Positions 1,335-55,577 of a DNA stretch of 64,000 nucleotides are shown piece by piece. The stretch comes from a virus (lineage: Duplodnaviria > Heunggongvirae > Uroviricota > Caudoviricetes), in the IMG/VR virus record IMGVR_UViG_3300042691_028414, one strand, 5' to 3'. The position numbers were made by a program, and so were the translations under genes. Position 1 is the stretch's first letter. The number at the start of each line of letters is the position of its first letter. The notes below the pieces were generated by a model. The model saw nothing but the letters and a program-made list of their open reading frames with translations. It did no database searches and was not told the origin of the DNA.

Positions 1335-1604
1335 TTATTTTGTTAATTCAATTTCTTCGTAAAGATTATTGTTTTCTGCGGAATTTACTCCATAATATTC
1401 TAACACCACATTACAACCACATTCAGAGTTAAACCTTGAGGTATCGGTGATTAAAATTTTATCACCACTAACCTTATGTGTTACAAAGTCACCTGGACTA
1501 AATTTAAACTTTCGTTTGTAATATTCTTCATCACTACAACCACATCCTGTTAGAAATAGGATGGTAACAACTATTATCACCATCCCAAATAATCCCTTAA
1601 CCAT
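1335..1604 (-). CDS. small lipoprotein
   Basis: Signal peptide ending in the lipobox LTGC (MVKGLFGMVIIVVTILFLTGCGC). Confidence 0.55.
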   Translation of the reverse strand: MVKGLFGMVIIVVTILFLTGCGCSDEEYYKRKFKFSPGDFVTHKVSGDKILITDTSRFNSECGCNVVLEYYGVNSAENNNLYEEIELTK

Positions 1605-2554
1605 TATTTATTCAAGTTTAAGAACATTCCTGAATTACCTGCCACCGTTGTTGGTAACTTCCCATCCCACGAATTTGCTTTCAAATATTCAATATACAAC
1701 GGTGTTAACCTATCTTGTTTAATCTTGATTGCAAGTGCTGCGGCATTGGCATTAATAACTGTCTCAGCAGAATCCGCTCTTGCCACCGCAACCTTTCTTT
1801 TACCTTCCGCGATTGCTGCGATTGCCTGTTGTTCTGACGCTTCAGCCTGTTGTATCGCCTTTGTCTTTGCGATAATTGATTCTTGTAACGCTTCAGGTGG
1901 TGTAATATTCGTTCTCAACTGTGAAACATCAAACCATTTTGTCAATCGTTTATTACATTCCGCCACGATTGCCGCCTCAAATTGTTGACGATTACTAAAG
2001 ATACTATCAACTTCCCATTTATTTGCTTCATCATTAACTGCTCCAACGATTGCATTTTTCAACCATCCTTGTTCAATATCTTTAACCTCAAGACGAAGAT
2101 TAACGAACATATCACCAATCGCATCAGGTTTTAATGAGTAGTTAAATGATGGTTTAATTGTTGCTGAGAATCCACCTTTTGTAATTACCACCTGATCATC
2201 ATACTCAATATGTTGTTGGTAAGTTGGGAACTCAAGAACTTGTTTAAACCAAGTATTATACATAACCCACCCTGTTGTATATTGGTAATTTTGTACACCT
2301 CTGTTGTCACCAGTTAAGTTTACAATAATACCCTTATGTCCCGCATCAATTCTTTCAACCGCAAATGGTTGGAATAACGATACAAGAGTTCCAAAGACAA
2401 AAATACCAAGTGGTTTAAATAACCACGCCGCATTAAACTTTTCTCTATTATCTCCCCATCTGTCTGTACTTGTTACATACATATTACCTCTTGTTTTCAT
2501 TGCGAATACTACCGCCGCAATCAAACACACTACAAAAATTACTGTACTAATCAT
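1604..2554 (-). CDS. SPFH/band-7 (stomatin/prohibitin-like) membrane protein
   Basis: N-terminal TM helix followed by a band-7 core and an Ala/Gln-rich coiled coil (AIQQAEASEQQAIAAIAEGKRKVAVARA...). Confidence 0.65.
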   Translation of the reverse strand: MISTVIFVVCLIAAVVFAMKTRGNMYVTSTDRWGDNREKFNAAWLFKPLGIFVFGTLVSLFQPFAVERIDAGHKGIIVNLTGDNRGVQNYQYTTGWVMYNTWFKQVLEFPTYQQHIEYDDQVVITKGGFSATIKPSFNYSLKPDAIGDMFVNLRLEVKDIEQGWLKNAIVGAVNDEANKWEVDSIFSNRQQFEAAIVAECNKRLTKWFDVSQLRTNITPPEALQESIIAKTKAIQQAEASEQQAIAAIAEGKRKVAVARADSAETVINANAAALAIKIKQDRLTPLYIEYLKANSWDGKLPTTVAGNSGMFLNLNK

Positions 2555-2790: not shown

Positions 2791-3420
2791 TTATCCAAAT
2801 GTTTGGATCTTTGCATTCACCTCAACTAAATCCGTCCAAGTACCTAAGTATGTTACCGCCCTTACTTTTCTATTATCAATCCAAACATATTCTTGATTAT
2901 CACTAATTCTTGGTTTGTCCATAATTAATTGATGAAATTTGAATCCATGTTCCCAAAGCCATTTTAATGTAACCACTCTATCCTTTTCCTCCCTTGCGGT
3001 AAAAAAAGTAATGGTGTGTCCTTCTTCCGCCCATTTATTAATCTGTTCCAATGATCCCTGAATAACTTTTGCAGTTGGGTATAGGTGAGAGTCCTCGTTC
3101 TTAATGTCATCACAAATTGTTCCATCAATGTCAATCAAGAATATTTTTGATTTAGGTTTGTTTGGTATGTTTATTTTCCCAACAAACTTATGATACCCTT
3201 TTTGAGTTTTTTCATCATAGTAACAAACAGGTATTACATCAAAATCTACTTCCATTAACTTGGGTGGATTTGTTTCTTTAACCCATTCTTTACTTTCATC
3301 AGATAAACTAAATGATTGTCCATTAACATCCCACTCTTTTGTTGTCTTTAACCACCACCCACCTGGTGATGTATATCCGTTATCTTCAAATGGTTCGTAA
3401 TATTTTAAATAACCTTTCAT
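2791..3420 (-). CDS. HAD-superfamily phosphatase with an N-terminal extension
   Basis: HAD motif I FLIDIDGTI (DxDGT) in the C-terminal half. Confidence 0.55.
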   Translation of the reverse strand: MKGYLKYYEPFEDNGYTSPGGWWLKTTKEWDVNGQSFSLSDESKEWVKETNPPKLMEVDFDVIPVCYYDEKTQKGYHKFVGKINIPNKPKSKIFLIDIDGTICDDIKNEDSHLYPTAKVIQGSLEQINKWAEEGHTITFFTAREEKDRVVTLKWLWEHGFKFHQLIMDKPRISDNQEYVWIDNRKVRAVTYLGTWTDLVEVNAKIQTFG

Positions 3421-6781: not shown

Positions 6782-7363
6782 TTAATCTTTCAAATATTTT
6801 AATATCTTTTCTTTAACCCCAGATTGTTTAATACCTTCGTTTGATTTTGGTGTCAATACAAAATTATCTATCGCCCACTCATCTTTCCAGGGTTCACCAA
6901 TTTTACCCATATTCAAGTCATCAATAGAGACCCAATGAGTTACTTCAGGGTGATCATGAAGATATTGTCTAATTTCAATTGTTCGTGTTTGTTCTAAATC
7001 CCATCGTGGGGACCAAATAAATAAATTACCATGAACTGTACACGTACCTATGTTTGGTGTTAATGATATTGGTTTTTTACTTATTCCGTGTAACTCATAG
7101 TACTCACCAAGTTCTTCTAGTGTAGCGTGTAGTTTCCAATCTGAAGATACCACAATCTCAGCTCCTGTTTCTTCAAGAATTTCATTAAGAACTTTAACCG
7201 ACTTAGTGTCAAAATCATCAAAACGAAAAGATACTGGAGCGTCTTTTTTTTCCTTACTACTATCAGGGTTTTCACTACGATAGTTTGCCCATTTTTTCGT
7301 TCGTCCTCCCCAATTATTGGAAAGACAAATAACTCCATCGTGATCCAAAAATATAACTTTCAT
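6782..7363 (-). CDS. HAD-like hydrolase
   Basis: N-terminal VIFLDHDGVI (DxDGV), consistent with HAD motif I. Confidence 0.5.
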   Translation of the reverse strand: MKVIFLDHDGVICLSNNWGGRTKKWANYRSENPDSSKEKKDAPVSFRFDDFDTKSVKVLNEILEETGAEIVVSSDWKLHATLEELGEYYELHGISKKPISLTPNIGTCTVHGNLFIWSPRWDLEQTRTIEIRQYLHDHPEVTHWVSIDDLNMGKIGEPWKDEWAIDNFVLTPKSNEGIKQSGVKEKILKYLKD

Positions 7364-7602
7364 TACCCCTCAATTTTGTTTATGAATGATTGTCGTTTGG
7401 ATGTTACCATTGCCTCAAGTGGCCAAATAACACTATACTGATAATCTCCCCAATACTTGTCAGGAGTGTCTCTCCTTAGTTGATCATTAAAATTTCTAAT
7501 CAATTTTTTGGCAGTAAAAGTTTGTTGGTATGTCTCACAAGAGTCAATAACCTTTTCAATCCATTTTGCAACATCTCCGTAGTGATTACTTCTTTTTTCC
7601 AT
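7363..7602 (-). CDS. hypothetical protein
   Basis: 79-aa ORF. Confidence 0.45.
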   Translation of the reverse strand: MEKRSNHYGDVAKWIEKVIDSCETYQQTFTAKKLIRNFNDQLRRDTPDKYWGDYQYSVIWPLEAMVTSKRQSFINKIEG

Positions 7603-7810: not shown

Positions 7811-7845
7811 AAAACAAACCCCCAACTTACATTGGGGGTTTTATA
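7811..7845. terminator. rho-independent terminator
   Basis: aaacccccaacttacattgggggtttt: an 8-bp GC stem followed by a T-run. Confidence 0.65.
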
Positions 7846-8529: not shown

Positions 8530-8736
8530 TTAAATAAGATGTTCATTCCCATTCAATATGTTAACAATCTTTCTTGCCAAAGTATGTTCTTCAGTATGGT
8601 AAAAAGTATCATTATTGTTTCGTAGATATCTTCTACTCCAATATTTAATAAACAAAAGATCCACTTTTTTTTCAATTATGAATCTTTTGTTTCGTTCATC
8701 AAGAACCATCCTATATTTTCTTTTACCCAATCTCAC
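8530..8736 (-). CDS. hypothetical small basic protein (GTG start)
   Basis: TATATTTG sits 4 nt upstream of the GTG at 8736. Confidence 0.4.
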   Translation of the reverse strand: MRLGKRKYRMVLDERNKRFIIEKKVDLLFIKYWSRRYLRNNNDTFYHTEEHTLARKIVNILNGNEHLI

Positions 8737-8777
8737 TTTGCAAATATAGTAAAAGACTTTAATTAAAACAAATTTAT

Positions 8778-9752
8778 TTATGGTAAATCGTCAAAATCTC
8801 TTAAAATTGCAGGATAATTTCTCATTGGTATAGTCATCGGTACTAACCTTGGTGCCATTCTTGGTACCAATCTTGGCTCTTCCATCATCATATCCTCAAC
8901 AGGAATTGGAAGTTCATCCATAGTTTGTTCGGTTAGTTCTATAATTTCGTCTTTCCCATTGAAATAATGTTTACGACTCTTAATTTTTTCTTCAGGTGAG
9001 AACAAGTCATAATTAGTATGATTAGTTTTAACATCCAACCACTCAAAAAGTTTTTTAATCAATTCATTAGGTAAACCAGTTTCAAATGAATCAATATGAT
9101 TATCAACTTCATCATATATACCAATTTTAACCTCATTATTACTATGAATACCAAACTTTCTGTTTGTCTTTTTATTTATTACATAAATCAAAACTCCTTG
9201 TGCCGAATATCTATAGAAGTACTCACCATCGTTCTTCATTGATGTACACCACTTTGTTCCAAACCCATATGTAATCGCAGCATCGTGAGTTAATGGTTTA
9301 AAGAATAACCATTCATCGTCGTCGTGAACAATCATAATATCCTTTTTGGATTTTTTCAACATCTCTTTAGTTGCTGCCTTTCCAACTTCCCTAATTATGT
9401 CGTTGAAATCTTTATATGTTGATATGTCCGTATTTTCCACCAATCCTCTTTCAAGATATTCTGTAAATAGGGGAAGTTTATCCAAATTTTCCACATTGAA
9501 ATAATTTACACACAACCAATTCAAAAGTGTCATTTTTGAATCGGGTAATTCTTTAATTATTTTTACTGTTGGTGAGTCATTTTCATTCCCGCCCCAATAC
9601 ATATCATTTTTACGAATTTCAATACCATCTTTTAACATCTTAATTAATAAAGGTGTTAACTTTTTTGTTTTAGTCGGATCCAATTTGGAAATCAAATCAA
9701 TTAAATTGATATTCAAATCAGGATTCTGTTCTTTTAAATGTTTTAGTCCCAT
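8778..9752 (-). CDS. hypothetical protein
   Basis: 324-aa ORF with no motif I recognise. Confidence 0.55.
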   Translation of the reverse strand: MGLKHLKEQNPDLNINLIDLISKLDPTKTKKLTPLLIKMLKDGIEIRKNDMYWGGNENDSPTVKIIKELPDSKMTLLNWLCVNYFNVENLDKLPLFTEYLERGLVENTDISTYKDFNDIIREVGKAATKEMLKKSKKDIMIVHDDDEWLFFKPLTHDAAITYGFGTKWCTSMKNDGEYFYRYSAQGVLIYVINKKTNRKFGIHSNNEVKIGIYDEVDNHIDSFETGLPNELIKKLFEWLDVKTNHTNYDLFSPEEKIKSRKHYFNGKDEIIELTEQTMDELPIPVEDMMMEEPRLVPRMAPRLVPMTIPMRNYPAILRDFDDLP

Positions 9753-9756
9753 AATT

Positions 9757-10002
9757 TTATCTTAATACAATTGGATGAATAATAAAAAATATTTCTTCTG
9801 TTCTACCATCAACCTTAACAACTCTATCGTTTTTCAACTCAAGATCTGAAGTCCCATATTCTTCTTTAAGTCGATTCATCTGAGATTTGAGTTCTTTTTT
9901 TGCATCATTTTCAAATTTAAAATAACCCACATATGAATCACATCCGTGTCCTTTTTCATACACACCAAAAATAATTTGTCTTGTTTCTATTCTATTTTTC
10001 AT
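9757..10002 (-). CDS. hypothetical protein
   Basis: 81-aa ORF. Confidence 0.45.
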   Translation of the reverse strand: MKNRIETRQIIFGVYEKGHGCDSYVGYFKFENDAKKELKSQMNRLKEEYGTSDLELKNDRVVKVDGRTEEIFFIIHPIVLR

Positions 10003-10411
10003 TTCTTCTTTCTCTTTTTACTATTGATAAAACCTCACTTAAATCCCAATATGTACTTTTTATTCCACCTCTATCATCAAGGAATATGTTTGCATATATC
10101 TTACCATTCATCCCATATGGTTTATCCCACTCAGGATGCATTTGATTTACCCCATGAACTTCAATACCCAACTTTTCAACTTGTTCTTTTGCGGTTTCCA
10201 ATTGTCGTTCACTTCTTGCAGTATTAATTAAAAATATAATACCTTCTTTTTGACATTCCAAAATCAAGTCAACAACTTTTTGACAATGTTCTTTTAATTC
10301 TTCATTATATGGAATTATTGTGTCATCAAGATCACAACCAATAATCAATTTACCATTTTTTAACCATTCAGTTGCAAGTCGGTTAATGAAGAAATTTGCG
10401 TGATGTCTCAT
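9992..10411 (-). CDS. HAD-like phosphatase
   Basis: LIIGCDLDDTI (DxDDT) HAD motif I. Lies adjacent to the RNA ligase gene. Confidence 0.5.
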   Translation of the reverse strand: MRHHANFFINRLATEWLKNGKLIIGCDLDDTIIPYNEELKEHCQKVVDLILECQKEGIIFLINTARSERQLETAKEQVEKLGIEVHGVNQMHPEWDKPYGMNGKIYANIFLDDRGGIKSTYWDLSEVLSIVKRERRNEK

Positions 10412-10412
10412 A

Positions 10413-10679
10413 TTAAAATCTACTTGAAAGTTTTTTAATTAATTCTTCTTCTTCGTTTGTTAGTAGGTAATAATTGTTCCATAGTTTTGTGAGGTTATCT
10501 CTTAATTCTTTTTCTCCTTGAGATTCTATATCACCTCTAACAACTTTTCTTATTTCAGGATTTGGGTGTGATTCTAATATGCCGTCATCGTGTAACCACT
10601 GAGCCATAGTTCTTTTGTCACTTCTATCCATCTCATCGTAGACATCATCAAGGTCCACATAAACTCTAACACTACTCAT
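10413..10679 (-). CDS. hypothetical acidic protein
   Basis: 88-aa ORF. Confidence 0.45.
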   Translation of the reverse strand: MSSVRVYVDLDDVYDEMDRSDKRTMAQWLHDDGILESHPNPEIRKVVRGDIESQGEKELRDNLTKLWNNYYLLTNEEEELIKKLSSRF

Positions 10680-10718
10680 AATTTCTTTTTTTAATTATAT
10701 GAAAAAATGATGACTCCA

Positions 10719-11849
10719 TCAATGGGAGTCACCAACATTATTTTTCTCCCCATATATTAAATAATCAGGATTGATAACCTTTGCAACTTTATGACGATCA
10801 CCAGTCACAGATTTAACAACGATACCTTCGTGAGGAACTTTGGTTCCTTTTATAAAATTACCGAAGACATATTTATCTTGTTCTTCTTTACTCCAAGTTC
10901 CTTCATATAATACTTCAACTTGTGGGAGTTCCAAACAATCAAAATGAACGGTTTCTTCAAGGTGTGGTTGATAAACACCATCAACTTCAACATCAAAACC
11001 AACAAACTTTATTTCCTCCAAACCATATTCATAGTTTTTTTGGATTCCTTTACCATAGATTTCCCCATAGATAGTAAGTCCTTGTTCCAAAGATTCAGGG
11101 TAATATGTATCCTTAACATGATCCCAAAGTTTTTTTCGTATGTCATATTTGTTGGCAACTTCTCTCCACACATCAGTATCGTAGAATCCTTGAGAATCAG
11201 ATCCTTTCTCCACATTATGAGAACCATACACATATTCAAACTCAACCCACTCATTACCGAAGAACTTTTTCACTCTATCCCACAAAGAAAGTTTTTTCTT
11301 TCTAACTATTCCAAATCTGGCATTAGTTCCGTGTATTTTACGGGTGATAACAACCTCATCTTCTTCGGTGAACATATCAGGAACATTCTTCATGTTTGGG
11401 AATTTGTGATAGATATGGAAGTTTGGATTTTGGTGGTATCTAACTTTCTTACCTCCACCCAAAGTAACCATTTTAACCGGTGGTTCGTATTTGGTTATTC
11501 CAAGTATTTCCATCATATCATCACCTTCATTAACATTGTTCACCAATGATTTTGGTGCCAAGTACTTGAATGGTATTAACAAACATTCGGAATAAAATCC
11601 ACGAAGTTTTACGGTTCTAACTCGTTGTCCTTTACGAAGGTAGTTAGTCACTTCCATCAAGTCAGACAATGCTTGTGGTATTACCGCATCAGTGGTTGCA
11701 ACAACAACTTTATCTCCTTCTTGGTATTCACCTTTTTTGGTTATCGCCTGCCATCCACCAACAAGTACAAGTTCTATGTTGTCAGCATTTGGTATTTCAA
11801 CTACTGAACCTATTTTTCCAACATATGCTACGCTATTTTGATTTTCCAT
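10719..11849 (-). CDS. RNA ligase, Rnl2-like nucleotidyltransferase, with an extra N-terminal domain of about 150 aa
   Basis: Motif I RKIHGTNARF (the T4 Rnl2 KIHGTN), motif IV HEGIVVKS (EGxVxK), motif V RHKVAKVINP (KxK). Confidence 0.65.
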   Translation of the reverse strand: MENQNSVAYVGKIGSVVEIPNADNIELVLVGGWQAITKKGEYQEGDKVVVATTDAVIPQALSDLMEVTNYLRKGQRVRTVKLRGFYSECLLIPFKYLAPKSLVNNVNEGDDMMEILGITKYEPPVKMVTLGGGKKVRYHQNPNFHIYHKFPNMKNVPDMFTEEDEVVITRKIHGTNARFGIVRKKKLSLWDRVKKFFGNEWVEFEYVYGSHNVEKGSDSQGFYDTDVWREVANKYDIRKKLWDHVKDTYYPESLEQGLTIYGEIYGKGIQKNYEYGLEEIKFVGFDVEVDGVYQPHLEETVHFDCLELPQVEVLYEGTWSKEEQDKYVFGNFIKGTKVPHEGIVVKSVTGDRHKVAKVINPDYLIYGEKNNVGDSH

Positions 11850-11952
11850 TATTTTCTATTAACATAATTTGTTATTAATTTATCCACATATGGTCTCAAC
11901 ATTACACCCATACAAATTCCTCCTACAAGATACACTATCATATTTTCTTTTT

Positions 11953-12213
11953 TTACAATTTTTCAAATTCTTCTTTTACCAAATCTATTTCTTCATTCAA
12001 CCTCTCAAGTTCTTTGGTTATCATTTCTTTAATAATCTCTTTGTTATAGAAACTAACCTCACCTTTTCCGTTGAAACCTCCAGAGTGTGTAAATCCAATC
12101 GTGACACTCAAACCACAAGATTTAAGCGCAGATTCTAATTTATACTTCTGTCTTTCCAATCTATCAAGATCTTCTTTAACTTTTTTTGCTTGTTCAAATT
12201 TTTCTACTTCCAT
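11953..12213 (-). CDS. hypothetical coiled-coil protein; start moved to the internal Met
   Basis: TATATTTG sits 5 nt upstream of the ATG at 12213. Confidence 0.45.
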   Translation of the reverse strand: MEVEKFEQAKKVKEDLDRLERQKYKLESALKSCGLSVTIGFTHSGGFNGKGEVSFYNKEIIKEMITKELERLNEEIDLVKEEFEKL

Positions 12214-12251
12214 TTTGACAAATATATTAATAATTTTTTTATACCACAACA

Positions 12252-12878
12252 CTACCCCAAACTTTCAGGATAATACAATAATGTTGGGTTTTTTTTAGCG
12301 ATGTCTATATCAGGAAATCTCTCCTTGAAAGTCTTAACATCAAACTTACCAGTTATCAAATGCCACCCATTCTTTGTTGGTATAACCGCTTCAATTTTTT
12401 TACCTTCAGGTTTAAGATAATTAATAAATTGTGATAGTTCAGTAACGGCATGAAAATCGGTTACGTCAATATCCACAATCCACCGTTTCTCTTGAGTTTT
12501 AATTTGCCCAACAACTGAATCAAATAAACCTTTTTGGTTTGATACACCGTCTCTAATCCGTTCGGCAAGTATTGCCAACATATTTAATGACACATCTTTG
12601 TGGTTTTGTTTTTGGACATGGATATATGCACGAGCCTTAAACATTTCACAAAGTTGTTTAATCTCATCATATCTTTTTTCCAAATATGGGATGGACTCAA
12701 TACAATAAGTTTTAATTGTTCTTACTGATTGGTGATTATCCCTTTCACCTTCCGGTTGATCCTTCTTTCGTTTAAATACATATAACATATAGAAGTCACC
12801 ATAATGTGAAAAATTCAATAATGGTTTTATTAAATCTATGTTATCAATCTTGTTCATTTTCATCATCATAATATTCAT
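12252..12878 (-). CDS. hypothetical protein with IVDIDVTD and KNGWHLI motifs
   Basis: A DxD motif, then a GWH motif about 35 aa downstream, then PDIDIA. This could be an AEP primase-polymerase or a minimal nucleotidyltransferase; unresolved. Confidence 0.4.
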   Translation of the reverse strand: MNIMMMKMNKIDNIDLIKPLLNFSHYGDFYMLYVFKRKKDQPEGERDNHQSVRTIKTYCIESIPYLEKRYDEIKQLCEMFKARAYIHVQKQNHKDVSLNMLAILAERIRDGVSNQKGLFDSVVGQIKTQEKRWIVDIDVTDFHAVTELSQFINYLKPEGKKIEAVIPTKNGWHLITGKFDVKTFKERFPDIDIAKKNPTLLYYPESLG

Positions 12879-13380
12879 CTACTTTCATTGAAACTGGTGG
12901 GGTGAAATCCCAAACAGTGTTTTCAAACTCTGTGATCCATTCATTCAATTCTTCTCTTGTCCAAAATGGAGCAAAATGTGGACGGTAACTAAACGGAACA
13001 TTGTCTTTATTTTCCCAATCTTCAAGTCGTTGTGTTACATCCTCAATTAGGTTTTTATCCTTATTGTACTTATTCCATTGTCTATAATCATCTTCGGATT
13101 TGATATACATAACATCACCATAATTATAAAAATCCATCTCAGGGAATTTCAAATTTGGGTTGTTGGTATATACATCAACAATACCATTGTCTCCATTGTA
13201 TTCACCACAAAGTTCTTTTAAAGAATGTAAACTACTTGGTCTTTCTTCCCACACACTACCGAACTGACGAACAGAACAGATATACAAATACCCATCATCA
13301 TATGAATGAATAAGTCCTTCAATTTTATTTCTTAAAGAAATAAGTTCGTCCATTGTAAGTTTAGTTAAGTCCATTTTCAT
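12844..13380 (-). CDS. hypothetical acidic protein
   Basis: 178-aa ORF; TACTTTTG sits 4 nt upstream of the ATG. Confidence 0.5.
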   Translation of the reverse strand: MKMDLTKLTMDELISLRNKIEGLIHSYDDGYLYICSVRQFGSVWEERPSSLHSLKELCGEYNGDNGIVDVYTNNPNLKFPEMDFYNYGDVMYIKSEDDYRQWNKYNKDKNLIEDVTQRLEDWENKDNVPFSYRPHFAPFWTREELNEWITEFENTVWDFTPPVSMKVDEYYDDENEQD

Positions 13381-13438
13381 TTTACAAAAGTAATCATTTT
13401 ATATTTACCAAACAATATTTTTGGATATTTATTTTAAT

Positions 13439-13888
13439 ATGAACCTACAAGAATCCATAAGAAGAATATTAAGGGAAGAAACCATAAAAGATAAATATAA
13501 AAAAGAATATATTAATTTTCATGGTAACATGGAAGGGTTTGATGACAATTGGGATAATCTGTTTAATAAAGATTTTAATGATGGTGGTTTGATGAATATA
13601 CCTGAATATATTGAATTGAGTAGATTAGTTAATATTATTGGGGAATTTAAAAAGGATAAAAATATACATTGGATAAGAACCTCTGATGAATATTTATTTT
13701 ACGATACGGATTGGTTGTTTTTATCCGATGTTAAAATAAATGATAACGCTAAAATAATCAGAATAAAAACACACAAATCAAATATTAATTTAGATCAAAC
13801 AATAATTCAAAATTTAACTTTTAATTATGAAAAAGAGATTACCTTGAAAAACTTGGATTTAGAAAATTATGAAATAATAAAATATTAA
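13439..13888 (+). CDS. leader-peptide family member (MNLQESIRRILREE subtype)
   Basis: ATG at 13439; the ORF-track start is a TTG 18 nt upstream. TATTTTTG lies upstream. The product is an Asn/Lys-rich protein. Confidence 0.5.
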   Translation: MNLQESIRRILREETIKDKYKKEYINFHGNMEGFDDNWDNLFNKDFNDGGLMNIPEYIELSRLVNIIGEFKKDKNIHWIRTSDEYLFYDTDWLFLSDVKINDNAKIIRIKTHKSNINLDQTIIQNLTFNYEKEITLKNLDLENYEIIKY

Positions 13889-13890
13889 AT

Positions 13891-14217
13891 ATGAACCTAC
13901 AAGAAAACATAAGAAGAATATTGAGGGAAGAATTATTGAATGAAACAAAGTTCTTCCGTAGAAGAATTGATTTAGATGAGGTTAAGAAGTTACTTTCAAT
14001 TAATGCACAACAAGTGTATTACGAAACTGAAAGTTATAGAGGTTTTAAATATGACTTAACTTTAAGAGCGGTAGAATCAATTATGTGGAATAATTATGAA
14101 CTTGGGTGGGAGGATTTACCAGAACAAGAGGAAATAGACTTTGTGACAGAAGTTTCTGATATGCTTGAGGACACGATTAAACAGTTATACAAATTTTATC
14201 ATAATAAAAGATTCTAA
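13891..14217 (+). CDS. leader-peptide family member, paralog of 13439..13888
   Basis: MNLQENIRRILREELLNE; the 5' nucleotide sequence is nearly identical to that of the upstream paralog. Confidence 0.5.
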   Translation: MNLQENIRRILREELLNETKFFRRRIDLDEVKKLLSINAQQVYYETESYRGFKYDLTLRAVESIMWNNYELGWEDLPEQEEIDFVTEVSDMLEDTIKQLYKFYHNKRF

Positions 14218-15780: not shown

Positions 15781-16128
15781 TTAGTATTTAATAATCCAAG
15801 TCACTCCCTTTCCAAAATTGGGTGATGCATGAGAATTAATATCTTTAGATTCTAATGATTCTATTTTATCCATTATTTTTTCACGATTACCGTCAACAGG
15901 TGACGGTAATTGAGTAATAATGTATTTAACATATTTAGTATATTTAAGTTTCTTTCCTGAAACATCACCCTTTTTAATCTCAATCTTACACCCACTAGGT
16001 AAACCCAATTTTTTTCTCAACTGAAAAACGGTTAAGTCTAATAAATCAGATTTAGATTCATTTTCTTTAATCACACGATTAACAATTCTTGTCAAGTCTG
16101 ATTCGGTTAGTTTAATTATTTTTTTCAT
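15781..16128 (-). CDS. leader-peptide family member, small basic cargo
   Basis: MKKIIKLTESDLTRIVNRVIKE followed by cargo. The third gene of a tandem paralog triplet. Confidence 0.55.
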   Translation of the reverse strand: MKKIIKLTESDLTRIVNRVIKENESKSDLLDLTVFQLRKKLGLPSGCKIEIKKGDVSGKKLKYTKYVKYIITQLPSPVDGNREKIMDKIESLESKDINSHASPNFGKGVTWIIKY

Positions 16129-16132
16129 ATCA

Positions 16133-16465
16133 TTATTTTATATAAAACCAAAATGAGTTTTTACTTGCGTTACCAAGTTTAAATAAGTTACTTTCAAATT
16201 TATTATTTAGTTTCTCAATGATTTCTTCAGCAATCTCTTCGGTGTCATCCCCCGATTGTTTAAAACTAACCATAAATCTGTCATATGGTTTATCTGACGA
16301 TTCTTTATAACCACCTTTCCATTCATCCTCACCAATGTAATCATCCATAAGTTTTTTTAACACATCCTCAATTTTTTCATTTGATGGTTTTTTCTTATTT
16401 TCATTGATCACTCGTTTAACAATCCTTGTTAAATCTGATTCGGTTAATCTTATTACTTTTTTCAT
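16133..16465 (-). CDS. leader-peptide family member
   Basis: MKKVIRLTESDLTRIVKRVINE. Confidence 0.55.
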   Translation of the reverse strand: MKKVIRLTESDLTRIVKRVINENKKKPSNEKIEDVLKKLMDDYIGEDEWKGGYKESSDKPYDRFMVSFKQSGDDTEEIAEEIIEKLNNKFESNLFKLGNASKNSFWFYIK

Positions 16466-16469
16466 AACA

Positions 16470-16766
16470 TTAAATATCTAAATTTTTAACTTTAATTCCT
16501 TTTGTATTTCTTTTTAAACCTGATGGTGTTGTATCGTCAGTTCTAAAACTACAAACAACATCAAACATAGCTTTTTTAAAATGGTGGAATGTTCCTTTTT
16601 TTCCATGGTATTCACCCTTTATTTCCAATTCACCATAAACATCTTCCAATTCTTCTTTTGACATCTTTAATATTTCAGATTTACTTTGTTTCTTTTTGGA
16701 TTCGGTAATAACCCTTTGGATTATTCTTGTCAAGTCTGATTCGGTTAGTCTTATTACTTTTTTCAT
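16470..16766 (-). CDS. leader-peptide family member
   Basis: MKKVIRLTESDLTRIIQRVITE; TAAATTTG-TAAA-ATG upstream. Confidence 0.55.
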   Translation of the reverse strand: MKKVIRLTESDLTRIIQRVITESKKKQSKSEILKMSKEELEDVYGELEIKGEYHGKKGTFHHFKKAMFDVVCSFRTDDTTPSGLKRNTKGIKVKNLDI

Positions 16767-16800: not shown

Positions 16801-16835
16801 AAAAACCCCACTCTTATTTGAAGTGGGGTTTGTAA
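16801..16835. terminator. rho-independent terminator
   Basis: ccccactcttatttgaagtgggg hairpin. Confidence 0.6.
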
Positions 16836-16838
16836 AAT

Positions 16839-17207
16839 TTATTTCTTAATCGGAACTGTGTCAACTGGTTCAAGTGTCACTTTGGTGATTCCTTTTCTAA
16901 TGAAGTTAAGTTCCTTTGCGGTTCCGTAACTCAAATCAATCACAAAACTTGATGATTTTGGTAACCTGTCGTTGATCTTAACATATCTAACAGAATCATT
17001 ACTTGTGTTTGTTACTTTCACAATTGTTCCGAACTTAAAGTACTTATGAGCCGCAGTTAAACTGTCTTTGTGGAATAGTTCTCCTGATGATGTCTTTCTA
17101 CCTGTCCAATGTTGTCCGTAATAAGATGCGGTTCCTGTGTAGATTTTTTCTGATGATTTAAATGATAATAGTGTAATTAGTGGAATAAATAATAATAGTT
17201 TTTTCAT
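16839..17207 (-). CDS. secreted RlpA-like double-psi beta-barrel protein (lytic-transglycosylase-like)
   Basis: Signal peptide, then ASYYG...TSSGE...TAAH...VTN...VKINDRLP, which matches the RlpA/DPBB pattern. Confidence 0.55.
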   Translation of the reverse strand: MKKLLLFIPLITLLSFKSSEKIYTGTASYYGQHWTGRKTSSGELFHKDSLTAAHKYFKFGTIVKVTNTSNDSVRYVKINDRLPKSSSFVIDLSYGTAKELNFIRKGITKVTLEPVDTVPIKK

Positions 17208-17252
17208 ATTATGAATAATAAAAAATCCTCCACAAAAGTGAAGGATTATATT

Positions 17253-27759: not shown

Positions 27760-28595
27760 TTTTTCTCCAATGTTTCAATGTGGTGTTGCAAATACCACAA
27801 TGCTTTTTTAAGATCCTGTAATTCTTTATCTAACTCTTTCTTACCCGCTCTTGAGATATACTTCACAGTATTACCAAGGGAGAATCCTAAGTCCCAAGCA
27901 TCAATCACCTTGATTGCTTCATATGGGTTTGACTCTCCCCCATAGTGGTTAGGGTGATTTACTTGTTCCTTTTTTTCTTCCATTTCTTTTTTCTTTTTGT
28001 GAGCCCAAAATACTCCATCAATATGATAGGTATTAAATCCTTGCCAGTCAAATGATTCAATTACATTATTAACACCTTCAGTAGGATCTTTTGAGGACTT
28101 ATAATCATCCAAATATACAATACCATCATCATTAATAAAATTAATCACATTATTAATATCACCTCTAACGCATTCCTCAAAGTGGCACCCATCAATCTCA
28201 ATAAAATCAAATTTTGTTTTTGATGTGTCTAAAACTCTTGGAACAACCTCAAGGGAGTTACCAGGAAATAAACTCAAATGTATGTTCCACTTCCTGTAAT
28301 GCTTGGCAAGTATTGAGTGATTGTTAACAGTACTCTCATATTTACAGTCATCAAATACAAAAACAATTATTGGTTTCCTATTAAAATCAGGATCTTCATT
28401 AATTATTTTCAATAATGTCTCACATATTAAAACCATTGAATGTCCTTCATTGAATCCTATTTCAATAATATTTCTTGGTTTAATTTGGTATACCAAATCT
28501 TGTAGGGTATGAATCCTTTCTGGGTACCAACTAATGTTACCCTCACCCTTACCAAACATCATTCCGGGTAATTTGTTAAATATATTATTTTCCAT
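27756..28595 (-). CDS. hypothetical protein with a Rossmann-like N-terminus and a DUF3310-like C-terminal tail
   Basis: IIEIGFNEGHS, then a C-terminal HPNHYGG...GNTVKYISRAGKK. The 4-nt overlap with the MTase gene suggests co-expression. Confidence 0.45.
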   Translation of the reverse strand: MENNIFNKLPGMMFGKGEGNISWYPERIHTLQDLVYQIKPRNIIEIGFNEGHSMVLICETLLKIINEDPDFNRKPIIVFVFDDCKYESTVNNHSILAKHYRKWNIHLSLFPGNSLEVVPRVLDTSKTKFDFIEIDGCHFEECVRGDINNVINFINDDGIVYLDDYKSSKDPTEGVNNVIESFDWQGFNTYHIDGVFWAHKKKKEMEEKKEQVNHPNHYGGESNPYEAIKVIDAWDLGFSLGNTVKYISRAGKKELDKELQDLKKALWYLQHHIETLEKK

Positions 28596-29784
28596 TTAAA
28601 TCAAATTTAATTTCTTTTGTAGGGATATTACTTCCATCCATTGTTTTACCATCCAATTCAAATTCTTCATCATTGAAGTATTCTTTTAATAGTTCATCGG
28701 TTGGGATTGTTTTATAATCCATCTTAAGGTTGTCCATATCAAGTTTATAATTCATTTTATGTTTGATGTCGTCAATCTCTTCAGCGTTTCTTAATGATTC
28801 ACATATTTGATAAATGATTTTATATGGATCAGCATTAGATGATGGTCGTCTATCTTCAACATATCCCTTCCATTCTTTTGCGGTTGATTGTGGAACTCTA
28901 ATTGATGCACCTCTATCTGAAATACCCCAACTAAACTTATTAATTGATTGGGTTTCAAATTTACCCGTCAATCTTAATTCATTTGATGAACCATAATTTT
29001 CAATATGTTCTTGGTGTCTTGTGGCAAAACTTGAGAAAATTGATTTAAAATGATTTTCACCACCTTCTTCCCTCATTTTATAATTTGAGAAGTTTGTGTG
29101 AAGTCCAGATCCATTCCATTCACCTTTTTGGATTGGTTTTGGGTGTAGTTCAATCCCATAATTATATTTTTCGGACAACTTATGTAATAGGTATCTAGAC
29201 ATCCATAAATCATCTCCTGATTTCAATTTACCTTGAGAGAATACTTGATACTCCCATTGTCCAAGTGCAACCTCGGCATTTATTCCTGTTATGTTAATCC
29301 CATACCTTAAACATAAATTCATATGTTCTTCAACAAATTCTCTACCCGCAACATATTCTCCAACACCACAATAATATTTACCTTGTGGTTCCAAGTTGTT
29401 TTCATCGTGGCCTAAAATACATTTATTTTTTCTATCATAGATAAAGTATTCTTGTTCAAAACCAAACCACAAATCCTCTTGTTCATTACCAAGTAATGAT
29501 CTGGTATTTGATTGATGTGGTGTTCCGTCTGAATTCATAACCTCACAAAGAACATACACACTACCAAATTTATCATCCAAATAATGTCTTACAGGTTTTA
29601 AAATACAGTCTGAAGTCCCAGTTTCTGCTTGGTTTGTTGATGATCCGTCAAAGTTCCATTCAGGAAATCTACCCGTTATAAATGAATTTTTTATGTCATC
29701 GTAATTAACAATTTTTACCTTACTTCTTAAATTTGGTTCCGGCATATATCCGTCTAACCACAGATATTCAAGTTTAATCTTCAT
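28585..29784 (-). CDS. glutamine synthetase, type II-like
   Basis: N-terminal EYLWLDG...RSKV matches the GSII EYIWIDG..RSKT motif; the catalytic region contains EVALGQWEYQV. Confidence 0.65.
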   Translation of the reverse strand: MKIKLEYLWLDGYMPEPNLRSKVKIVNYDDIKNSFITGRFPEWNFDGSSTNQAETGTSDCILKPVRHYLDDKFGSVYVLCEVMNSDGTPHQSNTRSLLGNEQEDLWFGFEQEYFIYDRKNKCILGHDENNLEPQGKYYCGVGEYVAGREFVEEHMNLCLRYGINITGINAEVALGQWEYQVFSQGKLKSGDDLWMSRYLLHKLSEKYNYGIELHPKPIQKGEWNGSGLHTNFSNYKMREEGGENHFKSIFSSFATRHQEHIENYGSSNELRLTGKFETQSINKFSWGISDRGASIRVPQSTAKEWKGYVEDRRPSSNADPYKIIYQICESLRNAEEIDDIKHKMNYKLDMDNLKMDYKTIPTDELLKEYFNDEEFELDGKTMDGSNIPTKEIKFDLNGK

Positions 29785-53201: not shown

Positions 53202-55577
53202 TTATTGATATACCTTTGAAATATTATCTTCTTTTCTAATCTTAACGATGGTGTCCGCCCACTGATTAACCATTGGGTTGTGTGTAATGACAAATATTTT
53301 CTCAAAATATTCTTTAATTTTAATAAAGAATTCTGAAACCATTTCCAAATTGTCGTTAGATATTTTTCCGAACACCTCATCAAAGACAATTATATTTGGT
53401 TTTGGTAACGAACAAATCTTACTTAATACTGATCTCAATGCCAATGATGCAATTGTTTTTTCATAACCTGAACCTGATGTCATTAATTTCTCAACACCAG
53501 TACCGTTGTCAATCATCATAAACTCAACTTCATTCTTATCGTTAATTCTAACTTCAAGTTTGAAGTATGAACTATCCTCCATTAGTCTTTGAAGTTCTGA
53601 GTTTATTATCGGCATCATAGTTTTCATTATGATTTTAGATATCCCATTTTTACCGAACGCCTCCAAATATATTTTATATAATTTTTCTTTTTCAGATTCC
53701 TCCTGAATTTTGATTATTGTATTTAAATTATTTTTAATCTTATCTTCCAACGAGGTGATTTGGTAAGTATTATTATTGATTAGTGTTTGTTTTTGAGTCT
53801 TTTCTCTTTCAAGTTCCTCAATTCTAATACCTGCTTTTAACAACATACCCTCAATCTTCTCATTTTCCTTAATTTTTTCAATCAATTCGTTATACCTTCC
53901 TAATTTTTGTTTTAAATTTTCAATTTTAAGATTATAACTCTCAATACTCAAATCATATTTTTCTTTAATAAGTTTGTTTTTCTCATACTCATCAAACTCT
54001 TTTTTAAGTTGTACAAATGCCTGTTCTTTGCCTGATAAAACCGTCATTAACCCCTCTTTTTCCTCTTTTTGCCTATTATAACCATCAAGTTCGGCAATTT
54101 TAGATTGGGTGATTGATGCCATCATTAAATCAATACCACAGTGTTCGCATTTAATTCCACCATCAACGGAACTCTTTAATTCCTCAATTGATTTAATCTT
54201 ACTCTCAACTTGGATTTTTTCCTTGAATACTTCGTTATATTCTTCTTTAACCTTATCGTGTTGATCCTCATAATAAAAAGAAGATGGTTCAACTACCTGT
54301 AATTCATTTGACTTCTTAATGATGTCACCTTTTTGATACTCAAATGAGTTAATCTCATCTTGTACCTTATCAGGGTTTGTTTGAGCAATATCATTATCTA
54401 TATCAGTATGTTTCTTTTTTAACATATCGTCACGATAATCCTTACCCTTTGTTAAGTTTACTTCAACTTGATTAAGTTCGTCTTTCAATGTATCAATACT
54501 AGTTTTAAAATTTTCAATATCAGTTTCATATTGTTCATTATCACTTTTTAATTGCTCAGTATTATAAACATTAGATAACATTGATTTAGAAAAATCAGAA
54601 TAAATTTGTTTTGCAGATTCTTCTTTTTTCTTTAAAAACTCCAACCCCATAAACCTTGAGAGTACCTGTCCTCTTGCCGTTGGTTTTGATTCCAAAAGGT
54701 CCTCAAGATTTGTTGCGGTGGTTAAAATTGTCATTAAGAAATCATCTTTAGAACCGATTGATGTTTTAATGAATTGTTCGGTTTCTCGTCTTTGTTCACC
54801 AGTAAAGTTTTGTAAACTACCGTCGGAAAGTTTTTTGAAGAAGTCTAATTCGGTTTTAACATTCCATTCACCTTTCTTAGACATTTTTCTTTCGATGTTT
54901 CTAACAATAATATATTCTTCACCATCAATAATAATTTCACCCTTTACAACTACCGAGTTTTTATCGGTAAATCGATTAAAGATTTCTTCCGCCTTTGATG
55001 TTTTTGTTGTCTCATTAAAGAATAGGAACATTAATAAATCCACCGATAATACTGTCTTACCACCAAAGTTAGGTGGATTAGATTCAACTACTGTAATACC
55101 ATTACATTTATCAAAATCAATACGCTGATTATCACCATATGATAAGAAATTAGAGAATTCAATATTTTTGATATACCATTTCTTAAATGATGAGGTTTCA
55201 TCTTCTGATTCAGACATTTTATTCTCAACCATTCTATTGATTGACATAACCTCATCAATACGATTTTCATACCCCTTAGACTTAAGAAATTGTTTCAACA
55301 AATCAGTTTGATAATTTGTGTCCATAATGTTTACAGACACATCAACACTTTGCATAGTATCTTCCTGAATGTTTTTAACTTTTGTGATAACATTCACATT
55401 AGTGGAACCGTACTTCTTTTGGAAGTAATGTTTAACACTCTTAATCTTATCTTGTGTGAAATTCTCTGAAATGTCTTCCCATACTACTTGAATAGGTGGG
55501 TTTTCAAATTTAGAAAACTCTAAATCTTTTATCATAATTTTATAATTAAATGTTTTTGGTGGATTAAACAGATCCAT
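53202..55577 (-). CDS. SbcC/Rad50-like recombination ATPase (T4 gp46-like)
   Basis: Walker A NPPNFGGKT; long coiled coil; Walker B NIIVFDEVFG at the C-terminus. Confidence 0.75.
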   Translation of the reverse strand: MDLFNPPKTFNYKIMIKDLEFSKFENPPIQVVWEDISENFTQDKIKSVKHYFQKKYGSTNVNVITKVKNIQEDTMQSVDVSVNIMDTNYQTDLLKQFLKSKGYENRIDEVMSINRMVENKMSESEDETSSFKKWYIKNIEFSNFLSYGDNQRIDFDKCNGITVVESNPPNFGGKTVLSVDLLMFLFFNETTKTSKAEEIFNRFTDKNSVVVKGEIIIDGEEYIIVRNIERKMSKKGEWNVKTELDFFKKLSDGSLQNFTGEQRRETEQFIKTSIGSKDDFLMTILTTATNLEDLLESKPTARGQVLSRFMGLEFLKKKEESAKQIYSDFSKSMLSNVYNTEQLKSDNEQYETDIENFKTSIDTLKDELNQVEVNLTKGKDYRDDMLKKKHTDIDNDIAQTNPDKVQDEINSFEYQKGDIIKKSNELQVVEPSSFYYEDQHDKVKEEYNEVFKEKIQVESKIKSIEELKSSVDGGIKCEHCGIDLMMASITQSKIAELDGYNRQKEEKEGLMTVLSGKEQAFVQLKKEFDEYEKNKLIKEKYDLSIESYNLKIENLKQKLGRYNELIEKIKENEKIEGMLLKAGIRIEELEREKTQKQTLINNNTYQITSLEDKIKNNLNTIIKIQEESEKEKLYKIYLEAFGKNGISKIIMKTMMPIINSELQRLMEDSSYFKLEVRINDKNEVEFMMIDNGTGVEKLMTSGSGYEKTIASLALRSVLSKICSLPKPNIIVFDEVFGKISNDNLEMVSEFFIKIKEYFEKIFVITHNPMVNQWADTIVKIRKEDNISKVYQ

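Follow-up and report, generated by a model that had tools for sequence, protein, structure and literature searches.

A loose island of predicted nucleic-acid-end enzymes in a Bacteroidota phage: an Rnl5-type RNA ligase, its healing enzymes and a putative minimal AEP-fold protein

What use might a phage make of an RNA ligase, a small phosphatase and a protein of no annotated family encoded within three kilobases? The question is raised by a run of minus-strand genes at 9992..12878 in a 64,000-nucleotide stretch (the window) of the Caudoviricetes record IMGVR_UViG_3300042691_028414, which in transcription order code for proteins of 208, 86-99, 376, 88 and 139 amino acids (aa). A sequence-only reading of the stretch had proposed an RNA-repair module built around an Rnl2-like ligase. 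The motifs and coordinates it quoted are present, all on the minus strand and inside significant family matches, and its ligase, its 5' kinase and one of its two fold guesses for the 208-aa protein (here p208) hold; the Rnl2 label and the Pnkp-type origin of the 139-aa phosphatase do not. It also missed a metallophosphoesterase (MPE), which is the constant partner of the kinase, and a second phosphatase, of the HAD_SAK_2 family. On balance, the region from about 1.6 to 20.2 kb is somewhat more probably than otherwise a loose island of enzymes for broken nucleic-acid ends, a healing-and-sealing toolkit that includes p208. The system would be of a known kind with one new, putative component, p208; assignments of function rest throughout on homology, predicted fold and gene order. 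The genes concerned are as follows.

10719..11849, minus strand: Rnl5 RNA ligase, 376 aa (PF21189 and PF09414, TIGR02306, NgrRnl profile match)
12252..12878, minus strand: p208, AEP-fold protein, 208 aa (predicted structure and three AEP motifs)
19792..20181, minus strand: T4-Pnk-type 5' kinase, 129 aa, kinase domain only (AAA_33, T4 Pnk profile match)
18530..19183, minus strand: binuclear MPE, 217 aa (Metallophos, phrog_547, metal-binding motifs)
6782..7363, minus strand: HAD_SAK_2 stand-alone HAD phosphatase, 193 aa (Pfam PF18143)
9992..10411, minus strand: minimal cap-less HAD phosphatase, 139 aa (Hydrolase_3, four HAD motifs)
11953..12213/12252, minus strand: small coiled-coil protein, 86 aa (ATG 12213) or 99 aa (GTG 12252), cluster c17
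10413..10679, minus strand: conserved 88-aa protein after the ligase, cluster c38

The source is a large Bacteroidota phage. The window has a G+C content of about 30%, and its relatives are found among IMG/VR contigs of up to about 290 kb. Cultured phages and binned contigs with p208 homologues alike indicate Bacteroidota hosts; they comprise Cellulophaga and Tenacibaculum phages, the Prevotella Lak phages, one crAss-like phage, and contigs of metagenome-assembled genomes (MAGs) binned as Flavobacterium or Saprospirales. A DNA-level search of 8700..13400 against GenBank phages found no relative, and there is no close cultured relative.

The RNA ligase and its healing enzymes

The ligase carries KIHGTN at residue 171, EGIVVK at 341 and KVAK at 354, motifs which had been taken as diagnostic of RNA ligase 2 and which are in fact generic to covalent nucleotidyltransferases. 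An N-terminal OB-like domain (residues 1 to about 127) is followed by the nucleotidyltransferase domain, with motif I at K171, motif IV at E263 and motif V at E341/K357. Pfam families PF21189 (the PHA02142 OB domain) and PF09414 (RNA_ligase) match residues 8-93 (E = 4.6e-14) and 164-359 (4.2e-14), respectively, and phrog_968 matches at 3.5e-61. The model TIGR02306 (DRB0094 family) scores 3.6e-40, as against 3.8e-4 for the Rnl2 model TIGR02307, which reaches 20 bits where its cut-off is 197 and covers the nucleotidyltransferase core only. The 137.9 bits against TIGR02306 fall below the NCBIfam equivalog cut-off of 151.15, so that by the curated threshold the protein is a divergent member. A profile of 20 homologues (A3) finds NgrRnl (PDB 5cot) over both domains at 3.1e-54, and T4 Rnl2 at 3e-4 over 73 residues only. 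These two comparisons rule out an Rnl2 identity.

The N-terminal domain of roughly 150 aa, which had seemed unusual, is shared with DraRnl of Deinococcus radiodurans and NgrRnl of Naegleria gruberi (phmmer against NgrRnl residues 8-129, 2.5e-16; profile domain match 1.9e-38), and is thus a family signature rather than an oddity (PMC4408790). Residues K171, G174, G262-E263, E341-G342 and K357 are invariant in the 20 homologues and align with KLDG, GEIIG and EGLVFK...K of NgrRnl. The catalytic lysine, on which the sequence-only reading had staked its assignment, is in place: K171 falls on the motif I lysine of NgrRnl, Lys170, a proven AMP acceptor (PMC4408790). A C-terminal appendage is lacking, as in DraRnl and NgrRnl; the ligase ends 19 residues past K357, and its alignment reaches residue 334 of the 340 of NgrRnl. 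The signature N-terminal domain and the missing appendage are the defining features of Rnl5 set out by Unciuleac and Shuman, and phage homologues were noted there previously (PMC4408790). From its sequence, the window protein is a predicted nick-sealing RNA ligase of the Rnl5 (DraRnl/NgrRnl) family. It differs from NgrRnl in being about 37 residues longer, with extra sequence between motifs I and IV, and from both characterized enzymes in its setting, a Bacteroidota phage in which an AEP-fold gene lies next to it.

In one relative (L053 7301..9400, on the same contig as L083; loci are cited by such numbers) the Rnl5 gene is broken into ORFs (open reading frames) of 230 and 170 aa by a 222-aa HNH-motif ORF of cluster c123, in what looks like a homing-endonuclease insertion. 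The c123 family is also found 3' of an intact ligase in L017.

Rnl5 enzymes seal duplex 3'-OH/5'-PO4 nicks only with RNA as the 3'-OH strand, and their natural substrates are not established (PMC4408790). An enzyme so restricted needs healing enzymes. The P-loop protein at 19792..20181 had been suggested to supply the 5' kinase, and the suggestion is supported at the level of profiles: its family profile (A4) finds residues 1-144 of T4 Pnk (1ltq) at 3.5e-13, Capnocytophaga Pnkp1 at 3e-12 and CthPnk at 1e-7. The P-loop reads GIPGSGKST (G10-T18), and there are matches to AAA_33 (1.5e-11), phrog_2071 (1.9e-43) and phrog_505 PNK (1.3e-6). The residues G10, G13, G15, K16 and D31 do not vary among homologues. 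The last of these lines up with D35, the general base of T4 Pnk, and is the candidate general base of what is, by sequence, a predicted T4-Pnk-type polynucleotide 5'-kinase; T4 R38 aligns with a Phe.

The MPE carries the motifs DTHYGH17, GD75, GNHD102 and HLHGHVH154-160 and matches Metallophos (1.2e-6) and phrog_547 (1.1e-46). Its metal-binding residues D17, H19, D76 (of GD), N103, H104, H158 and H160 are invariant in 17 homologues, and its best relative in the PDB is Aquifex aq_1665 (4.7e-14). It is predicted to be a 2',3'-cyclic phosphodiesterase / 3'-phosphatase and the partner of the kinase. The two genes are separated here only by a plus-strand endonuclease gene, and in relatives of this phage they are neighbours a few kilobases upstream of the ligase, usually with the MPE next to the kinase. 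At more distant ligase loci these two genes are the ones that remain with the ligase: of the 24 loci at 57-65% ligase identity, 12 contain the kinase cluster. In L026 ligase, MPE and kinase are contiguous, in L033 the MPE-kinase pair lies about 1.5 kb upstream of the ligase, and in L028 and L051 the kinase is within 1.5 kb of it. Homologues of both (kinase 38-49%, MPE 28-35% identity) flank an Rnl1-type ligase as contiguous triads in Vequintavirus, Erwinia and Vibrio phages. Across phages, the kinase travels with the MPE and an RNA ligase.

T4 Pnkp with Rnl1 and Rnl2 follows the same logic, in which a 5' kinase and an enzyme that cleans 3' ends are paired with an ATP-dependent ligase, and the kinase domain of T4 Pnkp is detectably homologous to the window kinase. 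Unlike T4 Pnkp, however, the window kinase is a separate 129-aa protein without a HAD fusion, the constant 3'-end partner is an MPE, the ligase is of the Rnl5 type and an AEP-fold protein is added. The same three chemistries are combined in Clostridium thermocellum Pnkp (kinase-MPE-ligase-like) and in the phage triads, whose kinase and MPE families are homologous to those of the window. In the window, by contrast, three separate genes are scattered across 9 kb, and the MPE is nearest to Aquifex aq_1665 rather than to the CthPnkp / lambda phosphatase branch, while the triads employ an Rnl1-type ligase and have no p208.

p208 and its gene neighbourhoods

For the 208-aa protein the sequence-only reading had offered either an AEP/PrimPol fold or a minimal polymerase-beta fold. 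The motifs WIVDIDVTD, KNGWHLIT and PDIDIAKKNP are found in it, and an AlphaFold model built from a 116-sequence alignment has a pLDDT of 95.8 and shows both parts of the AEP fold, an N-terminal alpha/beta unit and an RRM-like unit. The AEP motifs are described as I hhhDhD/E, II sxH and III hD/E (PMC5862659). In p208, motif I is W-I-V-D136-I-D138 (100% and 99% conserved), motif II G171-x-H173 (99% and 98%) and motif III I/V191-D/E192; the three follow the canonical order, the active site being assigned by order and secondary structure and not by residue-level superposition. The confident model together with the three ordered, conserved motifs thus supports the first guess, whereas the polymerase-beta alternative found no support. 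As modelled, p208 is a stand-alone minimal AEP (primase-polymerase) fold protein, and the role predicted for it in the repair set is that of nucleotidyltransferase. Its true start is probably Met8 (12857), since its homologues begin about 10 residues further in.

p208 shares fold and motifs I-III with the AEP superfamily (RepB' primase, PriS, PrimPol, the polymerase domain of LigD), yet it is only about 200 aa long, stands alone without an accessory domain and is invisible to all Pfam and NCBIfam AEP models. Neither library matches p208 or any of the 116 family members, the PDB yields no match for p208 or the family profile, and PHROG 14949, to which it belongs, has no assigned function. A Foldseek search against viral models returned only uncharacterised phage proteins, such as one from Campylobacter phage CP21, and no fused domain is recognisable in the longer family members. 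The family is nevertheless abundant, counting 6,617 matches in a 90%-identity cluster database and 1,620 clusters at 50% identity. Its range so far, from a genome-collection scan with a 12-member alignment, comprises Bacteroidota phages, MAG contigs of Bacteroidota and close relatives, and one isolate-genome contig (Arcicella aquatica). AEP domains in multidomain predicted RNA-repair proteins, mainly kinetoplastid, were reported by Burroughs and Aravind (2016), as summarised in PMC5862659; p208 is likewise tied to RNA-repair genes, and is set apart from those proteins as far as that summary describes them. A survey of jumbo phages (PMC7824862) makes no mention of a stand-alone phage AEP like p208.

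The company that the gene keeps was surveyed by clustering all ORFs across 80 loci fetched via p208, together with the remaining loci, which gave 65 distinct p208 architectures. An RNA-end enzyme lies within 3 kb of p208 in 36 of these, although the loci often come from related phages and the counts are not fully independent. The enzymes are distributed as follows; cRec denotes the cyclic-phosphate processing receiver (PF20274).

CCA-adding enzyme: 15 p208 architectures
MPE (family of 18530..19183): 12 p208 architectures
Kinase (family of 19792..20181): 10 p208 architectures
cRec: 8 p208 architectures
Rnl5: 7 p208 architectures
Rnl1-type ligase: 6 p208 architectures
HD: 6 p208 architectures

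Within 1 kb of p208, repair genes reach a density of 3.1 per 10 kb, as against 0.3-0.8 beyond 2 kb, and ThyA has no density peak near p208. The link extends to distant members of the family. Eight p208 homologues of 35-37% identity were sampled, and in all five contigs long enough to judge a repair gene is linked to p208, the identity of the ligases having been confirmed by hhalign. The gene order is p208-Rnl5-AAA_33 in L157, Rnl5-AAA_33-p208 in L161 and p208-AAA_33 in L163; in L164 an RNA ligase lies 1.7 kb from p208, and in L166 p208 is followed by one small ORF, HAD_SAK_2 and then MPE, AAA_33 and Rnl5. L169 packs an Rnl5-like ligase, p208, Rnl1, HD, MPE and kinase into 6 kb, and L171 is similarly dense with p208, Rnl5, Rnl1, HD, MPE and kinase genes. 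In Cellulophaga phage phi17:2, the p208 homologue gp033 abuts a tRNA nucleotidyltransferase. Within the clade of the window phage the position of p208 varies: it adjoins the ligase region in the window, L053 and L091, and is 15-30 kb distant in other members.

Ligase, kinase, MPE and p208 are thus recurrently linked across unrelated phages. The co-occurrence that the sequence-only reading had expected of its three genes is borne out for p208, and for the kinase, in company with the ligase; the 139-aa HAD phosphatase drops out, its link to the ligase being confined to one clade. The layout described for the three was likewise right as to order, with the HAD downstream of the ligase and p208 upstream, but not as to direct adjacency, each being parted from the ligase by a small conserved ORF (10413..10679 and 11953..12213/12252). 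The coiled-coil gene, c17, always precedes the ligase in this clade (L004-L025) and elsewhere lies near p208, c22 and cRec (L066-L073, L100, L114). The c38 gene is found 3' of the ligase in 17 loci; its 88-aa product in the window has no match in the family libraries searched.

A possible pathway and its rivals

The syntax of phage RNA repair has been described as ligase plus kinase plus phosphatase plus nucleotidyltransferase (PMC7824862, section 3.4.9). By analogy, the best reading of p208 is that it takes the nucleotidyltransferase slot held in other phages by RlaP, the CCA-adding enzyme or Thg1. With these (PMC7824862) it shares the genomic habit of lying beside RNA ligases, kinases and phosphatases, and the same presumed role, that of restoring nucleotides at broken ends. 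Its fold, on the other hand, is unrelated to theirs (AEP as against polymerase-beta or Thg1 palm), and the CCA-adding enzyme often co-occurs with p208 rather than being replaced by it.

A pathway may be pictured in which a nuclease of the host or of a competitor leaves 5'-OH and 2',3'-cyclic-phosphate (or 3'-phosphate) ends; we infer its activities, its order of steps and its substrate, which could be tRNA, other RNA or RNA-patched DNA. The kinase would phosphorylate the 5'-OH and the MPE would free the 3'-OH; one or more HAD phosphatases may assist there, the HAD_SAK_2 protein being the most plausible helper and the 139-aa HAD another possibility. In the nucleotidyltransferase slot, p208 would add or restore ribonucleotides at the 3' end, templated or not. 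The Rnl5 ligase, adenylylated on K171, would then seal the 3'-OH(RNA)/5'-PO4 nick in a duplex or stem.

The kinase-phosphoesterase-ligase part of this scheme would be an ordinary further case of a known phage counter to RNA-cleaving host defences. The component that could matter is p208, which is very abundant, strongly conserved and unannotated in all libraries searched, and whose gene order connects it with two RNA ligase families, a Pnk-type kinase, phosphoesterases and CCA-adding enzymes. It has long been suggested that Rnl5 may seal RNA patches made by a repair polymerase (PMC4408790), an idea that a small, easily expressed polymerase-fold protein beside Rnl5 makes directly testable. A bolder and rather unlikely proposal is that p208 represents a new minimal class of AEP acting on broken RNA or RNA-tipped strands, where it would make or lengthen a short patch of ribonucleotides, or a complementary bridging strand, and so convert a gap or single-strand break into the nicked duplex with an RNA 3'-OH on which Rnl5 depends. 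If true, p208 would be, for RNA or for RNA-patched DNA, the repair polymerase partner for Rnl5 that has been speculated upon since DraRnl and NgrRnl were characterized, a polymerase-dependent branch of phage nucleic-acid repair would be defined, and the biology of AEPs would be extended from DNA priming to phage RNA-end repair.

Several observations weigh against a joint repair pathway. Besides the partial dependence among the counts, noted above, no repair gene can be recognised within 3 kb of p208 in 29 of the 65 architectures, p208 has DNA polymerase A as its direct neighbour in L161 and Pol I close by in the crAss-like cr116_1, its motif III is only 80% conserved, and AEP enzymes are mostly DNA primases. 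In the window itself, the kinase-MPE pair lies 6.7 kb from the ligase with unrelated genes and terminator-like hairpins between, a looser arrangement than in L026 or L157, and the closest solved relative of the MPE is an uncharacterised Aquifex protein rather than CthPnkp or lambda phosphatase. Relatives have a cRec gene just upstream of the ligase, but the whole 64 kb contain none, and no CCA-adding, Rnl1 or HD gene either. Scans of the window for tRNA genes and for Rfam RNAs found none, and there is no sign of a tRNA-like or Y-RNA cofactor; such cofactors are known from some repair systems.

Much of the same evidence bears on the main rival, namely that the genes are merely co-located, p208 being a replicative or re-priming primase in a plastic island of early and nucleic-acid-metabolism genes and the ligase with the kinase-MPE pair serving ordinary RNA repair; their closeness to p208 would then stem from common expression timing and from common descent of the phages sampled. 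This explanation, to which a low probability is attached, draws on the prevalence of primases among phage AEPs (PMC5862659), on the polymerase genes near p208, on the architectures lacking repair genes and on a p208-ligase distance that, in a single clade, can be as short as 0.3 kb or exceed 30 kb; moreover, p208 is 83-96% identical among its top matches as against 57-85% for the ligase, as expected of a core replication gene. Yet the helicase, PriCT and zinc-finger partners that commonly accompany AEP primases of phages are all lacking for p208, as is any recognisable fused domain, the density of repair genes drops about four- to ten-fold beyond 2 kb from it while ThyA shows no such peak, and the adjacency of p208, Rnl5 and kinase recurs at 35-37% p208 identity in otherwise unrelated contexts. 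A second rival retains a joint pathway and changes its substrate. The LigD protein of non-homologous end joining (NHEJ) unites a polymerase domain of the AEP type and a phosphoesterase domain with a ligase whose preference is for a 3' ribonucleotide, a precedent which speaks for a LigD-like repair of DNA breaks; p208 would extend or fill DNA 3' ends with a few ribonucleotides, the phosphoesterases and kinase would clean the ends and Rnl5 would seal the RNA-patched nick, so that phage DNA, and not RNA, would be protected or repaired. The membership of AEPs in NHEJ is documented (PMC5862659), the specificity of Rnl5 is confined to the 3'-OH strand, a DNA 5'-PO4 strand being accepted and physiological substrates not being established, the p208-Rnl5-kinase adjacency in L157, L161, L028 and L051 fits, and genes of DNA metabolism (DNA ligase, PolA, ThyA, dUTPase) occur in several p208 neighbourhoods. 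Nevertheless, the commonest neighbours of p208 are RNA-specific (the CCA-adding enzyme, cRec and Rnl1 of the list above, and HAD_SAK_2 too), p208 pairs with Rnl1-type ligases, which act on RNA stem-loops (PMC4408790, background), as readily as with Rnl5, and no Ku-like gene was seen. Such ribonucleotide patching of DNA is considered improbable as well.

The HAD phosphatases and the remaining genes of the window

The 193-aa protein at 6782..7363, with DHDGV as its motif I, matches PF18143 (HAD_SAK_2) at 8.6e-21, with 75.2 bits against a gathering threshold of 27.5 and over positions 1-136 of the 139 of the profile. Pfam gives this family the title 'HAD domain in Swiss Army Knife RNA repair proteins'. 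Of the 54 ligase loci, 21 carry a HAD_SAK_2 gene, as do 25 of the 80 p208 loci, and the one in L166 lies a single small ORF away from a distant p208 homologue. By its family, this protein appears a better candidate for an RNA 3'/2'-phosphatase than the 139-aa HAD.

The 139-aa HAD was described in the sequence-only reading as reminiscent of the 3'-phosphatase domain of T4 Pnkp, split off as its own gene. The HAD motifs are there: DLDDT stands at residue 27, and D27, D29, T31, T64, K104, D112 and D113 are invariant in 24 homologues, so the protein looks catalytically intact. It is placed only at superfamily level, by a Hydrolase_3 match (2.4e-5, above the Pfam cut-off), and its nearest kin are of the minimal BT0820 type (closest structure 2obb), of whose family, NCBIfam NF046079, it is a candidate member. 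Neither of the Pfam models HAD_PNKP and HAD_SAK finds it, and it does not resemble the HAD_SAK_2 protein of the window. The split-off Pnkp phosphatase is therefore set aside for want of any specific likeness.

An alternative, for this protein only, is that it dephosphorylates small molecules in nucleotide or NAD+ metabolism and merely lies 3' of the ligase in one clade, without being the 3'-phosphatase of the repair pathway; the chances of this are put at about even. Its homologues in Bacillus phages of the Bastillevirinae and in the gut phage Phass-1, at 31-35% identity, come directly after genes for phosphoribosyl pyrophosphate (PRPP) synthetase and nicotinamide phosphoribosyltransferase (NAMPT); this fixed position in two unrelated phage lineages hints at a role of the family in NAD+ salvage. 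Two examples are given here.

L153 4971..5381: homologue of the 139-aa HAD in Bacillus phage Zuko
L168 3965..4384: homologue of the 139-aa HAD in phage Phass-1

The RefSeq label of these two, 'phosphoheptose isomerase', looks like a mis-annotation. Further points for a metabolic role are that BT0820 is itself an uncharacterised minimal HAD, that the gene occurs in only 8 close ligase loci, that at least 13 close relatives lack it though they retain the ligase and have enough downstream sequence, that a terminator-like hairpin stands between it and the ligase, and that the 3' end is already served in the window by the dedicated HAD_SAK_2 protein and the MPE. Against it, wherever this clade has the gene, it lies no more than 3.5 kb downstream of the ligase, and weaker HAD139-like ORFs lie near Rnl5 or p208 in divergent loci (L098 28%, L115 57%, L134 37%, L161 27%). 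The protein also weakly matches phrog_415 'polynucleotide kinase' (E = 0.003), and some of the Bacillus-phage homologues were annotated as polynucleotide kinase by their depositors. Its part in RNA repair is accordingly doubtful, no better than an even prospect. A third HAD of the region is encoded near the start of the window.

2791..3420, minus strand: 209-aa protein with a C-terminal HAD domain (DIDGT; Acid_phosphat_B 9e-8, LNS2 1.4e-8)

Its match to HAD_PNKP, at 6.7e-4, is below the cut-off.

The transcription signals bear on how these genes may be expressed.

10708..10734, minus strand: terminator-like G+C-rich hairpin with T-run over the ligase stop codon (consensus match)
7816..7841, 10708..10734, 16803..16831, 17224..17247, 18519..18544, 20213..20234: terminator-like hairpins (consensus matches)

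The hairpin at the ligase stop codon would end a p178-p208-p99-ligase unit ahead of the 88-aa ORF and the 139-aa HAD. In all, 13 terminator-like sites were observed as against 4.4 +/- 1.8 in shuffles, an excess of about threefold; they fall mostly directly after gene ends, which suggests numerous short transcription units in place of a single long operon. A scan for sigma-70 promoters gave 75 sites as against 75.6 in shuffles, the consensus not being informative for a Bacteroidota phage.

The remaining recognisable features of the window are listed below; most of its other large ORFs have no Pfam match.

1604..2554, minus strand: membrane-anchored SPFH/Band-7 protein, 316 aa (Band_7 2.7e-18)
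7363..7602: 79-aa ORF abutting the HAD_SAK_2 gene
8778..9752, minus strand: 324-aa protein with a GTKWCT motif (phrog_17056/28193)
13421..13888 and 13891..14217, plus strand: two ORFs with the related motif NLQExIRRILREE
15781..16128, 16133..16465, 16470..16766 and 17253..18503, minus strand: tandem paralogous small proteins with the N-terminus MKKxIRLTESDLTRIV...
16839..17207, minus strand: secreted DPBB/lytic-transglycosylase-like protein
19140..19802, plus strand: DNA/RNA non-specific endonuclease with a signal-peptide-like N-terminus (Endonuclease_NS 7.7e-24)
23232..24644, minus strand: DHH-family phosphoesterase
28585..29784, minus strand: glutamine-synthetase-like protein
53202..55577, minus strand: SbcC/Rad50-like ATPase

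Band-7 homologues occur in 32 of the 80 p208 loci, typically 1-3 kb off; Burroughs and Aravind are said to have proposed in 2016 that SPFH modules act as RNA-repair scaffolds. The family of the 79-aa ORF is the commonest immediate neighbour of p208 elsewhere (19 of 60 architectures), and the two plus-strand ORFs at 13421..13888 and 13891..14217 occupy the slot of the relatives' cRec gene. The endonuclease gene is the sole plus-strand gene around the kinase and MPE pair; relatives have in its place a gene of the family of the 324-aa protein (p324) or nothing. The p324 family itself is present in several copies per locus in relatives, between kinase and MPE and also 3' of the ligase.

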